From Enterobacteria phage GiZh: DNA of 64,000 nt. The stretch lies in the sequence record NC_054903.1; one strand, given 5' to 3'. Both the position numbers and the translations under genes were made by a program. This document shows positions 17,146 to 25,756 of this stretch, one piece after another. Below the pieces are notes generated by a model that was given only the letters and a program-made list of their open reading frames with translations, did not search any database and was not told the origin of the DNA. How positions within the stretch are numbered: the first letter of the stretch is position 1; each line of letters begins with the position of its first letter.

Positions 17146-17619
17146 TTATTTGAACGATTTAACGTACTGAATAGAACCTTTACTATTCACAAAGGCAATT
17201 TTACCATTTTTATTATACATGGTAGCAGTACGTTGATAACCATAAGTTTGTTTACCAGATTGATAACCAACTAATGCGAAATTATCTTCGCCCATTTTAT
17301 TCTGTTTAGCGCGAATGCGTTCATGACCATGTGCCATAAGAACCTTAGCATCACCAGTTGCAATGGATCGACGAGTTTTTTCATCTTCAACTGTATTAAC
17401 AAAGTCGTCAAATGAATCAAATTTAGCATGAGATTTATTATACAATTTTCCATCTACTGCATAATTATATCCCTGTACATCCATCTCAACTTCTGTACCA
17501 TCATCCAATACAGCAGTGATTTTTTGACCTTTTTTAAATTTCAAAAGATCAGTAAAAGATTCAGCAATAATTTGAGAATTAATAGCTGCTTCAGTGATAA
17601 ATTCTTGATATGTTTTCAT
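17146..17619 (-). CDS. internal-protein-like capsid-targeted protein, 157 aa (ipII/ipIII position)
   Basis: N-terminus MKTYQEFITEAAINSQIIAE matches the T4 internal-protein capsid-targeting sequence (MKTYQEFIAE...) with Glu cleavage sites. Confidence 0.7.
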   Translation of the reverse strand: MKTYQEFITEAAINSQIIAESFTDLLKFKKGQKITAVLDDGTEVEMDVQGYNYAVDGKLYNKSHAKFDSFDDFVNTVEDEKTRRSIATGDAKVLMAHGHERIRAKQNKMGEDNFALVGYQSGKQTYGYQRTATMYNKNGKIAFVNSKGSIQYVKSFK

Positions 17620-17628
17620 ATGTTTCCT

Positions 17629-18045
17629 TTAAATGTAAATATTTTTACCGTAATACTTATACCAATGTGGTTTCATTAAAATTTTTTCATCAAGTCGTTG
17701 TTGACTCAATTTAATAGCTGATTTGCATGGATTATAATCATTTTTCCATTCTACTGGAATATCGCTGATGTCAGGAACTTCAGTATCTTTTATACTGAAC
17801 CCGCGTTTTAAGCATTCCGTTATAATGTCTAATTGACTCTTTCGCAAAAATTCTAACTTATCGTAAAAGAACGTAACATGACCAGAACCTAAAATAAACT
17901 CGGAAGATATTTTAAAATCTTTAACGCGCTTACCGTTTGCCACATGCTTACGAACTATACCAAAAACACGCGGCAATTCACGGTATTCTGCGATTAAATG
18001 TTGATCAGCAAGTTCAGATACTAAAGTCAAATTAATACGAGTCAT
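17629..18045 (-). CDS. denV: endonuclease V (pyrimidine-dimer DNA glycosylase)
   Basis: 138 aa, [29 protein letters not shown]...; I recognise this as T4 EndoV; GGAGGG upstream; early promoter at 18071-18099. Confidence 0.92.
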
Positions 18046-18070
18046 TTTATCCCTCCAATTAACTGTGAAT

Positions 18071-18099
18071 ATACTATCACAATTCTAGGAGAAAGTAAA
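18071..18099 (-). promoter_or_regulatory. early promoter (PeSL-type) of denV: -35 TTTACT, 17 bp, -10 TAGTAT
   Basis: Same -35/spacer/-10 architecture as the other elements. Confidence 0.55.
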
Positions 18100-18104
18100 C
18101 AACT

Positions 18105-18599
18105 TTATAGATTTTTATACGCGTCCCAAGTGCCAGTTCTAAACGTAGCAATGACTCGTTTTGCGCGATTAGGTGTTTGATTATACCATCTACTTTTAGC
18201 TAAGTTAACTGCTGCTTCATCCCAGCGTTTTTGTTGAAGCATACGCAAAGAGTTAGTGAATCCAGCTACGCCAGTTTCTCCCATTTGGAAAACCATATTA
18301 ATTAATGCACAACGACGAACAGCATCAAGAGAATCATAAACTGGTTTTAATTTAGCATTTCTCAGAATTCCGCGAACAGCAGCATCAACATCCTGATTAA
18401 AGAGTTTTTCAGCCTCATCTTTTGTAATTACACCATTGCAATTACGCCCAATAGCTTTATCTAATTCAGATTTAGCAACACTAAGTGATGGACTTTTGGT
18501 AAGCAAATGACCAATGCCAATAGTGTAATAGCCTTCGGTGTCTTTATAGATTTTAAGTCTAAGACCTTCATCTATACGTAACATTTCAAATATATTCAT
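18105..18599 (-). CDS. e: endolysin (T4 lysozyme)
   Basis: 164 aa, [38 protein letters not shown]...; near-identical to T4 lysozyme from memory with a few substitutions; two TATAAATA late promoters upstream. Confidence 0.97.
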
Positions 18600-18612
18600 A
18601 ATACCTCCTAAG

Positions 18613-18620
18613 TATTTATA
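18613..18620 (-). promoter_or_regulatory. late promoter TATAAATA (minus strand) upstream of e
   Basis: Plus strand reads TATTTATA; exact match to the T4 late-promoter octamer. Confidence 0.6.
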
Positions 18621-18625
18621 GAAGG

Positions 18626-18633
18626 TATTTATA
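18626..18633 (-). promoter_or_regulatory. second late promoter TATAAATA (minus strand) upstream of e
   Basis: Plus strand reads TATTTATA. Confidence 0.55.
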
Positions 18634-18635
18634 AA

Positions 18636-19091
18636 TTAAAAGAGGCTGTTCATTATTCGGTAAAGTGAAGGACCCATCACATATTGCCACTGAGTACGAG
18701 GAATAAGAGCAAAAGCATCCATCTCTGGAATCATAACACCATCTTTATTTTCAAAATAAGACTCGCAATGGCAATTTCTAAACATCTCATGCTCTACTGG
18801 AATCGTATAATAAAACAGCTGTAAGTCTTTATTACTAGAATATTTAAATACACCTAGGTCTTCTAGAAGGTCTGGATTATAATTGCTAAAACCGGTCTCT
18901 TCTAAGCATTCTCTTCGTGCTGCATCTAGTGCGCTCAAATCAGAATTTTCTACACGGCCTTTTGGAATATCCCAACGATGTGCCATCATTCCAGGCTTAC
19001 GAGAACCAGTAACCCGTCCCATGAATAAATCTTTATCTTCTGTCATAAAGATAATACCAGCTGATAATGTTTTCATTTTAATTTCCTGCAT
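18636..19091 (-). CDS. nudE: Nudix hydrolase
   Basis: 151 aa with Nudix box GRVENSDLSALDAARRECLEETGF; same length and position as T4 NudE (e.1). Confidence 0.85.
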   Translation of the reverse strand: MQEIKMKTLSAGIIFMTEDKDLFMGRVTGSRKPGMMAHRWDIPKGRVENSDLSALDAARRECLEETGFSNYNPDLLEDLGVFKYSSNKDLQLFYYTIPVEHEMFRNCHCESYFENKDGVMIPEMDAFALIPRTQWQYVMGPSLYRIMNSLF

Positions 19092-24272: not shown

Positions 24273-24560
24273 TTACCATTTATGATAATACATATTTACG
24301 ATGCATTCAAGACCCAAAGGATTCTTGAAAATATCATATTCAAGAGGACCTTTTTCTGTTTCAATAAAGAAATCAAAATTTACTGTATTAAATTTACGGT
24401 CTTCCTTTACTAATTTAACTTGTGAAGATGAACGGTCAATGTAAACCTTTTCAACTTCAAAATATGTTAAAATGCCATAATCATCAATCAAGGCTTTAGC
24501 CGCGTCTTGATCATATTTATATCCATTTTCAATGGACGATACTTTCGCATAAAGAATCAT
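24273..24560 (-). CDS. hypothetical protein, ~95 aa
   Basis: ORF track 24273..24566 (TTG) trimmed to ATG at 24560 with GAAGGT upstream. Confidence 0.55.
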   Translation of the reverse strand: MILYAKVSSIENGYKYDQDAAKALIDDYGILTYFEVEKVYIDRSSSQVKLVKEDRKFNTVNFDFFIETEKGPLEYDIFKNPLGLECIVNMYYHKW

Positions 24561-24562
24561 TA

Positions 24563-24943
24563 TCAACCTTCATCAACAATAGTATGCGTATTGGCATTTA
24601 CAATTTGCCACCAATCAAAGCGATTGGAACCATAATCTGGTTTGTTTTCATTTTCTTTGATAATGTCACGGAGTTCATCTTCAGTGGCGGCTTTCGCGAT
24701 TAAATCAGCATATCCACCACGAGGATAATAATTATCACCTGCAAAAAGTAAAAAGTTTGGTTTAATGTTATTGAACTCTTCAAGAGTAATAACCTTTCCT
24801 GACGGTTGAACAATCTCTACATATTTATATCCCAATTTTTGAGCAGCATCTACTGCTTCAAGCAAAGTATCATGAGCCCATCCAATTTGACAACCTGGCT
24901 TTTCAGATGGATTAGCCTGATAATCCGCATACACTTTGTACAT
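24563..24943 (-). CDS. hypothetical protein, ~126 aa
   Basis: ORF track 24563..24982 trimmed to ATG at 24943 (MYKVYADYQ) with AAAGGTG upstream; the longer form would overlap the upstream gene. Confidence 0.55.
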   Translation of the reverse strand: MYKVYADYQANPSEKPGCQIGWAHDTLLEAVDAAQKLGYKYVEIVQPSGKVITLEEFNNIKPNFLLFAGDNYYPRGGYADLIAKAATEDELRDIIKENENKPDYGSNRFDWWQIVNANTHTIVDEG

Positions 24944-24944
24944 T

Positions 24945-25130
24945 CTATTCACCTTTAGAAATTTTATCCATAACGATAGCAATTAAACCAATTAAAAATG
25001 CTACTACAAGTGAAAACACATTTTCTGCTGTAGTCAATAATCCGCATATAAATCCAACAAACATTGAAAAACTAAAAGCAGAAGCAGAAATTGCAATAGC
25101 AACATTTCGAATTAATTCACAACGTTTCAT
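24945..25130 (-). CDS. small membrane protein, 61 aa
   Basis: Two hydrophobic helices (VAIAISASAFSFSMFVGFICGLL; VVAFLIGLIAIVM); GAGGAG upstream; promoter at 25159-25187. Confidence 0.6.
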   Translation of the reverse strand: MKRCELIRNVAIAISASAFSFSMFVGFICGLLTTAENVFSLVVAFLIGLIAIVMDKISKGE

Positions 25131-25158
25131 TTTATTCTCCTCGGTAGTTGATAGGGTA

Positions 25159-25187
25159 ATAGTATCACTACCCTATCTAAAAGTAAA
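25159..25187 (-). promoter_or_regulatory. early promoter (PeSL-type): -35 TTTACT, 17 bp, -10 TACTAT
   Basis: Inverted repeat GATAGGG / CCCTATC; precedes the small membrane-protein gene at 24945-25130. Confidence 0.6.
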
Positions 25188-25188
25188 C

Positions 25189-25422
25189 TTATTTTTTACG
25201 AAAAATTGATTTATTTTCTGCTGCCCATTTTTCAATAACTGCAGCAGGACCAGTAACAACAATTTTATCACCGTAATCTTCTGCGGCGAGTTGACCGAAA
25301 TTATCTAATGCATCACGAAGAACTCCATGAGGCATTTCACCCATTTTATCTTTCTTGCCGGTGTAAATAAACTCAACTTTTACATCAGAAGATTCAGCGA
25401 TAAACTCTTTGAAAGTTTTCAT
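25189..25422 (-). CDS. internal-protein-like capsid-targeted protein, ~77 aa (ipI locus)
   Basis: ORF track 25189..25488 trimmed to ATG at 25422 giving MKTFKEFIAESS..., a capsid-targeting-type N-terminus; the table start lies upstream of the promoter at 25457-25485. Confidence 0.6.
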   Translation of the reverse strand: MKTFKEFIAESSDVKVEFIYTGKKDKMGEMPHGVLRDALDNFGQLAAEDYGDKIVVTGPAAVIEKWAAENKSIFRKK

Positions 25423-25456
25423 TTTGATTTCCATTTGGTTTTGTTTTGATAGAGTA

Positions 25457-25485
25457 ATAGTATCACTACTAAAACCCTGTGTAAA
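25457..25485 (-). promoter_or_regulatory. early promoter (PeSL-type): -35 TTTACA, 17 bp, -10 TACTAT
   Basis: Near-identical copy of the element at 25787-25815, including the upstream tract caactttgtgaaattattttaaatc; precedes the IP-like gene at 25189-25422. Confidence 0.6.
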
Positions 25486-25498
25486 CAACTTTGTGAAA

Positions 25499-25756
25499 TT
25501 ATTTTAAATCTTCTAATCGTTTCTTCATCTTAGAACCATTTTTAGCAATTTCTCCTGCATCTGAGCATAATGCTAAAAGCGCTTTAACTTTAGTTTGGTC
25601 TCCTTTAAAAGATGAAGGATCGACTGCAGCAGCAAGTTCTTTAATACGAGAGAAAAGACGCTCAGCTTCAGCTAAAGCCATTCCAAGCTTTACTTCCATA
25701 CCGTGGGAAGATTCGGTGATAGTAGTTTTTGTAGCAAACTCTTTGAAAGTTTTCAT
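25499..25756 (-). CDS. internal-protein-like capsid-targeted protein, 85 aa (ipI locus)
   Basis: N-terminus MKTFKEFATKTTITESS; flanked by near-identical promoter cassettes at 25457-25485 and 25787-25815. Confidence 0.65.
   Translation of the reverse strand: MKTFKEFATKTTITESSHGMEVKLGMALAEAERLFSRIKELAAAVDPSSFKGDQTKVKALLALCSDAGEIAKNGSKMKKRLEDLK

Follow-up and report, generated by a model that had tools for sequence, protein, structure and literature searches.

The first ten residues of the phage T4 internal protein IPIII are sufficient for encapsidation, with residues 4 and 7 serving in targeting and residues 8 and 10 in processing, and the prohead protease gp21 cleaves after the sequence L/I-x-E (PMC9026906, a review of work from the Black laboratory). 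The mature IPI* domain of 76 residues inhibits a GmrSD type IV restriction enzyme, GmrSD-CT596 (PMC3012670), and Ip1, Ip2, and Ip3 each inhibit distinct GmrSD enzymes, with no cross-protection seen for Ip2 and Ip3 (Silas et al. 2025, PMC12373910). In phage Bas37 (KarlGJung, MZ501089), Bas37_0260, encoded by one of the two genes at the ipI locus, is needed on E. coli K-12 only if McrBC is present, and its knock-out makes the phage McrBC-sensitive (10.1101/2025.11.20.689424, a preprint of November 2025). According to reviews, ip genes are confined to two loci, the e/denV region and the interval from 57B to trna.4. In this work, we analyzed a 64,000-nucleotide (nt) stretch of Enterobacteria phage GiZh (NC_054903.1; hereafter the window), in which four genes start with a leader of the T4 type. 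Three of them are the named genes ipIV, ipV, and ipVI, and the fourth, referred to as P2, encodes an unannotated candidate internal protein. We consider it likely that all four products are T4-type internal proteins, which would be packaged, processed by gp21, injected, and directed against type IV restriction.

The initial annotation had claimed four open reading frames (ORFs) with a common targeting leader, and this claim holds for each of them (Table 1). In a six-frame scan of the window, the pattern MK[ST][YF]x[EQ]F matched the starts of these four minus-strand ORFs and nothing else. The back-translated DNA pattern ATGAARNNNTWYNNNSARTTY gave four matches where 0.05 would be expected, a count reached in 0 of 100 shuffles. 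In 15 related loci, including the rest of the JLBYU31 genome, ATGAARNNNTWYNNNSARTTY was found only at the start codons of ip-type genes and of T4 61.1; the ip genes that it picks out are exactly ipI, ipII, and ipIII for T4 and ipIII to ipVI for phage PST, and across more than 300 kb scanned it has no match away from a gene start. The leader also agrees, as had been proposed, with the experimentally defined capsid targeting sequence (CTS) of T4 that is removed by gp21 after Glu (PMC9026906). Counted from Met1, all four products have Tyr or Phe at position 4 and Phe at position 7, and [L/I]-x-E occurs no more than 20 residues from the start, as ITE10 and IAE20 in IpIV, LNE10 and LNE15 in P2, IAE10 in IpVI, and ITE15 in IpV. 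For comparison, the T4 leaders are MKTFKEFTSTTTPVSTITE/A in IPI and MKTYQEFIAE/A in IPII and IPIII, where the slash marks the cleavage site. The 61.1 match is the sole one beyond the three loci discussed here in a whole genome of this type. T4 gp61.1 is a hypothetical protein of 54 amino acids (aa) encoded beside the primase gene; it starts with MKTFKEFIKE/DMVAG, a CTS-type sequence with an I-x-E site, and continues into a low-complexity acidic/lysine tail. A gene of the same type is present in JLBYU31 as JLBYU31_48 (locus positions 1467-1631 in T4 and 21915-22079 in JLBYU31).

Table 1. Positions in the window of the four leader genes, their flanking elements, and the head genes expected to act on their products (slash, predicted gp21 cleavage site; pI, isoelectric point of the predicted mature protein; P1 to P4, labels of the four genes)
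Feature	Position	Strand	Description
ipIV (P1), 157 aa	17146..17619	-	leader MKTYQEFITE/AAINSQIIAE/S; predicted mature protein 137 aa, pI 9.3
P2, 157 aa, unannotated candidate internal protein	22481..22954	-	leader MKSYAQFLNE/AVLNE/AS; predicted mature protein 142 aa, pI 9.6
ipVI / ip6 (P3), 77 aa	25189..25422	-	leader MKTFKEFIAE/SS; predicted mature protein 67 aa, pI 6.5
ipV / ip5 (P4), 85 aa	25499..25756	-	leader MKTFKEFATKTTITE/SS, long IPI type; predicted mature protein 70 aa, pI 9.2
Second hairpin copy, right boundary of P2 cassette	22450..22473	-	89% over 36 nt; T4/PST homology resumes after it
T4-type late promoter motif TATAAATA	22991..22998	-	36 nt upstream of the P2 ATG at 22954
rnaC-like RNA 3' terminator hairpin, left boundary of P2 cassette	23005..23028	-	sequence AGCCCCGACCGAAAGGTTGGGGCTTTTT
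Cassette copy 3	25146..25216	-	61%, more diverged; downstream of ipVI, upstream of trna.4; stem GATAGGG/CCCTATC (slash separates the two arms)
Cassette copy 2	25444..25514	-	upstream of ipVI; includes D-L-K-stop of ipV
Cassette copy 1	25774..25844	-	upstream of ipV; TTTACA-17-TACTAT with TG; includes D-L-K-stop of 57B
gp21 prohead protease	54747..55385	+	Pfam Peptidase_S77, E = 1.5e-111; enzyme expected to cut the leaders off
gp22 scaffolding core protein	55416..56225	+	Pfam T4_CASP, E = 5.2e-90; presumed leader-binding structure (PMC9026906)

The window proteins share with T4 IPI*, IPII, and IPIII the leader, the gp21 site, the two loci, a small size, and mostly basic mature proteins. They are also alike in that one leader is carried on many unrelated bodies, and they differ in that the mature regions have no similarity to those of the T4 proteins. 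The mature regions are unrelated in other comparisons as well: IpVI and IpV, which had been described as differing from each other after the targeting sequence, do align over the leader alone, as do IpV and T4 IPI. The matches to Peptidase_S77, T4_CASP, Gp23, and Portal_T4 all lie within 52.5-57.8 kb, indicating that a T4-type protease and scaffold are encoded. With the genes for the portal, gp21, gp22, and gp23 in the window, the machinery needed for the internal-protein reading is therefore there.

The initial annotation read the leader correctly and treated all four products as candidates, missing that three of them are already named. IpIV is 100% identical to IpIV of PST (KF208315) and 99% identical to 'Ip4' of wV7 (HM997020); it matches Pfam DUF7412 (PF24183) over residues 1-157 of a 158-position profile with E = 5.7e-96 and 319.4 bits against a cut-off of 27, belongs to phrog_3155 'internal virion protein', and is carried by 469 phage records. 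E10 and E20 are invariant across the IpIV family. IpV, a member of phrog_3499 'internal head protein', is 100% identical to PST IpV, to Ip5 of RB15 (Z35082), and to Bas37_0261. It sits at the ipI position and aligned to T4 IPI over residues 1-22 only, indicating no homology to the IPI* domain. IpVI (phrog_8111) is 100% identical to PST IpVI and is carried by 244 records, many of which name it ip6. The ORF list extends ipVI to a TTG at 25488, but this codon lies upstream of the cassette -10 box, and the ATG at 25422 is the start of every annotated homologue examined. PDB sequence searches with IpVI and IpIV gave nothing meaningful, and NCBIfam gave no match at or near its cut-offs.

The flanks of the named genes are the same in the window as in PST, RB15, and wV7, with vs.8 beside ipIV and with 57B and trna.4 on either side of ipV and ipVI. 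The gene content between the flanks varies. T4 carries ipII and ipIII between e and denV and ipI between 57B and trna.4, and all three are absent from the window, where e (18105-18599) and denV (17629-18045) are separated by 59 nt. In PST ipIV follows ipIII, whereas in the window and in wV7, where ipII and ipIII are absent, it follows denV; in the window it lies downstream of denV and starts 9 nt past the denV stop codon. In RB15, a short ip-locus entry, the order between 57B and tRNA.4 is Ip5-Ip9-Ip7-Ip8. The T4-type late promoter motif TATAAATA was sought immediately before ipIV, ipV, and ipVI, where it does not occur. The late motifs that precede these genes are, as in T4, located in front of e (18613-18633) and within gene 1 (26882-26889), and canonical ip genes, in T4 and the window alike, have early promoters besides the upstream late motifs.

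For the three named genes, the only new element is a probable target for IpVI. Because 73 of its 77 residues are identical to those of Bas37_0260, which occupies the same locus position, IpVI of the window is probably a McrBC inhibitor. The differences are confined to residues 4, 5, 11, and 12, where Bas37_0260 has YQ and the window protein FK at residues 4-5, and the first mature residues are TA and SS, respectively. In the predicted mature proteins, 65 of 67 residues are identical and both differences follow directly after the cleavage site. In the nearest relative, JLBYU31, the product JLBYU31_277 (locus positions 231-509) is annotated as a McrBC inhibitor of the Arn type; therefore, two anti-McrBC functions may coexist, an injected one (Ip6) and a post-infection one of the Arn type.

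The remaining gene, P2, goes beyond the records examined. Its product is present in 510 phage records and is 'hypothetical' in every record listed, including that of curated wV7, and its family, phrog_2280, is annotated as 'unknown function'. P2 keeps all four mapped leader determinants, Y4, F7, L8, and E10. Homologues from Yersinia and Klebsiella phages at 39-52% identity retain the leader at residue 1 while the body diverges, the leaders found being MKTYNEFLNE, MKSYAEFLTE, MLEYSEFLKE, MKFKEFLAE, and MLKFNEFLAE. The 24-residue N-terminus of a P2 homologue matches the first approximately 18 positions of five Ip PHROGs, with a best E of 0.0013, and, reciprocally, the IpIV N-terminus matches positions 1-17 of the profile of P2's own family. 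Mature P2 is basic, like IPII and IPIII. An AlphaFold2 model with a predicted local distance difference test (pLDDT) score of 76.7 predicts an all-helical protein with a disordered leader. P2 is plausibly a new Ip family at a third, cassette-built, and late-transcribed locus, and its packaging and processing appear rather probable to us. An exhaustive representative search brought up three large proteins, each of which matched P2 in five stretches; we rejected them as spurious, given that they are Ig-like beta-repeat proteins with only the repeated word AAGSYSYK in common with P2, which is predicted to be all-helical.

Alignment to T4 and PST showed that P2 is a discrete insertion of 555 bp. 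After the homology to rnaD/rnaC, the cassette reads in the order hairpin, TATAAATA, ribosome-binding site, ORF, and hairpin copy, and the duplication of the hairpin is absent in T4 and PST. The late promoter that had been assigned to this gene is thus in place (Table 1). No early promoter was found upstream of P2, and it therefore has the appearance of a late-only gene, unlike canonical ip genes. The same layout of hairpin, TATAAATA, and ATG, with about 40 nt to the ATG, also precedes the homologues in Klebsiella Jiaodavirus KEN39, where the hairpin is a different one, and in Bas37, while Mosigvirus SF has AATAAATA upstream of its P2 homologue. After the P2 homologue of Bas37 (98% identical) come another hairpin, a AATAAATA motif, and the gene bas37_0243 (Bas37 locus 8029-8592), whose product of 187 aa starts with MKTYAEFLTE/AA and has a mature pI of 9.5. 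BLASTP and hhalign aligned P2 and Bas37_0243 over the first 10-11 residues only, with 8 of 11 leader residues shared. Genes of the bas37_0243 type are present in 165 phage records and are 'hypothetical' in every record listed. The number of leader genes at the rnaC-e.8 site is zero in T4 and PST, one in the window, teqsoen, Bas42, wV7, and fD1, and two in Bas37, and in this respect the site resembles the classical ip loci. Whether the junction of the tRNA/rnaC region and e.8 is a third ip locus with an anti-defence function, made up of late-promoter cassettes with terminator-hairpin bounds and zero, one, or two leader genes, we rate at about even chances. This reading lies beyond the records examined, and an earlier mention, e.g., in Repoila 1994 or Comeau 2007, may exist.

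At the ipI locus, the proposed near-identical promoter cassettes around the two genes proved to be three copies of a 71-nt element (100/83/61% identity) that flank ipV and ipVI. The element carries TTTACA-17-TACTAT with an extended -10 TG. In copy 1, the -10 box lies in the loop of a stem TGATGAG/CTCATCA, and the hairpin stems vary among the copies yet stay complementary. The two best copies take in the final codons of the preceding gene, D-L-K-stop in both 57B and IpV. The cassettes fit the published PST/T4 early-promoter consensus TTTACW-N17-TAYWAT (PMC4122927, PeSL-type elements), include a stem-loop, and stand at either side of variable ORFs. Early-promoter/stem-loop elements of ip loci have been described before, and as far as Repoila 1994 is represented by its citation in PMC2839356, the likeness at the ipI locus extends to the early promoter, the AT-rich stem-loop, and the repeats around variable ORFs. 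The P2 cassette differs from this type in being bounded by a duplicated G+C-rich rnaC terminator hairpin and in having a late rather than an early promoter. Cassette exchange, which the initial annotation had suggested for this locus, is correct and already published (PMC2839356). The IpVI leader is MKTFKEFIAESS in the window (25387-25422) and MKTYQEFIAETA in Bas37 (locus 12752-12787), and the bodies are identical. This combination of an identical body with a different leader (MKTFKEF in the window and MKTYQEF in Bas37) suggests a crossover in or beside the leader-coding DNA. The early promoter of e.8 (22283-22334) has the extended consensus TTTCACAAA..GTTTACA...TACTAT in common with the ip cassettes (79% over 29 nt), so the similarity among cassettes is partly the general T4 early-promoter consensus and not specific to ip genes.

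Beyond the observed identities to named Ips, motifs, promoters, and cassette anatomy, the proposed mechanism draws on the literature on near-identical or analogous proteins for packaging, cleavage, injection, and the targets of Ip1-3 and Ip6; for P2, we infer all functional steps. The CTS of each protein would bind the gp22-based scaffolding core, by which the protein would be built into the prohead. There, gp21 would cut after [L/I]-x-Glu, at residue 10 and probably 20 in IpIV, at 10 and/or 15 in P2, at 10 in IpVI, and at 15 in IpV. Once mature, these small and mostly basic proteins would stay in the head alongside the DNA and accompany it into the cell, where they would neutralise nucleases already present in the host and directed at glucosyl-hydroxymethylcytosine DNA (type IV restriction); IpVI would most likely block McrBC. 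The genes sit in exchangeable cassettes, built from an early promoter and stem-loop repeats at the ipI locus and from a duplicated terminator hairpin and a late promoter at the P2 site, and this arrangement would account for the differences in gene content among related phages. The Dar (defence against restriction) proteins of phage P1 target type I, not type IV, restriction. They are alike in being head-packaged, injected with the DNA, and able to block restriction (PMC12810830), which is a functional analogy only, as the proteins and the phage are unrelated and there is no CTS/gp21 system.

Data on virions are available for Yersinia phage fD1, in which liquid chromatography-tandem mass spectrometry flagged as particle-associated g129, an identical copy of IpIV, g140, with about 97% identity to P2, and g146 of the IPI type. 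The neighbours g138, g139, and g145 were not flagged. We take these data as evidence of expression and co-purification, not of encapsidation. The detected set comprised 113-137 of 277 phage proteins plus 672 host proteins, without reported N-termini, and it was unselective, as denV, lysozyme, NudE, and a homing endonuclease were flagged as well. This lack of selectivity is one of several points that weigh against the reading of all four genes as injected anti-restriction genes. When ip4-10 were assayed against 15 GmrSD groups, no reproducible inhibition was seen (PMC12373910). The structure model of IpIV is unreliable, with a mean pLDDT of 50.7, and in the fold search with P2 the best PDB match had an E of 1.3 and BFVD gave only its own uncharacterised homologues. 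For P2 two further points count in the same direction: its leader in the window, with Gln for Glu at position 6, reaches only E = 0.059 against an Ip family profile, and the gene lies between rnaC and e.8, outside both described ip loci, where ipIV, ipV, and ipVI all reside. The position at an ip locus is, however, a descriptive feature of the literature and not a mechanistic requirement.

These points raise the possibility that P2 is a late cytoplasmic protein that is never packaged, its CTS likeness being a recombination relic or a short-motif coincidence. The weak leader score, the position outside the canonical loci, the label 'hypothetical' throughout those of the 510 records that were listed, and the unselective nature of the sole virion evidence for a P2-type protein would all fit. 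We nevertheless hold this unlikely: the leader is retained at residue 1 down to 39-52% identity while the rest diverges, all four experimentally mapped positions are present, in more than 300 kb every occurrence of the pattern is at a gene start, and the P2 homologue of Bas37 adjoins another CTS gene, whose body is non-homologous. Moreover, the CTS-coding DNA of P2 is unlike that of the ip genes and absent from their repeat family, which argues for selection on the peptide and not for recent DNA exchange. If P2 is packaged, it could, perhaps together with IpIV, have a DNA-associated or core-assembly role inside the head that replaces IPII and IPIII, rather than an anti-defence role. The loss of ipII and ipIII with only a short gap left between e and denV, the basic pI of mature P2 and IpIV, which resembles that of IPII and IPIII, the morphogenetic role suggested for IPIII with gp22 (PMC9026906), and the late-only appearance of P2, as of structural genes, are in line with it. 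Set against them is that the basic T4 proteins IPII and IPIII are now known as specific inhibitors of GmrSD enzymes, and that close relatives differ in whether they carry the P2 locus (T4 and PST lack it), a pattern typical of accessory counter-defence genes and not of assembly factors, so that a mainly structural role also seems improbable.

With regard to the arrangement of the genes, the leaders and flanking repeats could reflect the common descent of tandem paralogues only, without ongoing cassette exchange, and PHROGs does place both P2 and Bas37_0243 in one remote-homology family, phrog_2280. However, neither BLASTP nor hhalign found body similarity between these two proteins, the IpVI leaders differ between the window and Bas37 on matching bodies, the ipI-locus repeat reaches into the D-L-K-stop codons of the upstream genes 57B and ipV, and RB15 has Ip5-Ip9-Ip7-Ip8 where T4 has ipI between the same flanks. 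We therefore regard descent without exchange as very unlikely and retain the reading of T4-type internal proteins in exchangeable cassettes. This reading fits the anti-restriction function initially suggested, which is consistent with the inhibition of GmrSD by Ip1-3 (PMC12373910) and with the role of Bas37_0260 against McrBC (10.1101/2025.11.20.689424). Three of the four genes, and the cassette exchange at the ipI locus, are already known, leaving P2 as the new part. Injected internal proteins are at work ahead of all phage gene expression, and the survival of T-even phages under type IV restriction in E. coli, wild and clinical, is therefore decided by them, which bears directly on host range and phage therapy. 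If P2 is packaged, orphan defence systems could be paired with two new candidate inhibitors, P2 and its Bas37 neighbour, and searches confined to the two classical loci would miss part of the repertoire. If the third locus is real, P2-type proteins would be new injected counter-defence effectors, and, together with the CTS-type start of 61.1, the injected proteome would be larger than the two-loci picture implies.

The window belongs to a Tequatrovirus, and its nearest GenBank genomes are JLBYU31, JLBYU24, AndreasVesalius/Bas42, and teqsoen, with 95-97% nucleotide identity. A minus-strand gene block at 15.7-27.3 kb is collinear with the T4 genes vs.6 to gene 1. By synteny, the gene at 25829-26284 just upstream of the ipI locus is 57B, and the HIDEN-SEQ preprint treats T4 57B as Acb1, a nuclease that counters the cyclic-oligonucleotide-based anti-phage signalling system (CBASS); the ip cassettes therefore adjoin another counter-defence gene. 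Ten tRNA genes (Arg, Asn, Tyr, Met, Thr, Ser, Pro, Gly, Leu, and Gln) lie at 23345-24175 without a homing endonuclease inside the cluster, where T4 and PST have segB and Bas42 and Bas37 have putative homing endonucleases. The adjacent rnaD- and rnaC-like stable RNAs (approximately 23003-23340) can be aligned to T4 and have no Rfam family. The motif TATAAATA occurs 21 times in the window against 9.2 expected, a count reached in 0 of 100 shuffles, and the majority directly precede late genes and share their strand, as expected of T4 late promoters.

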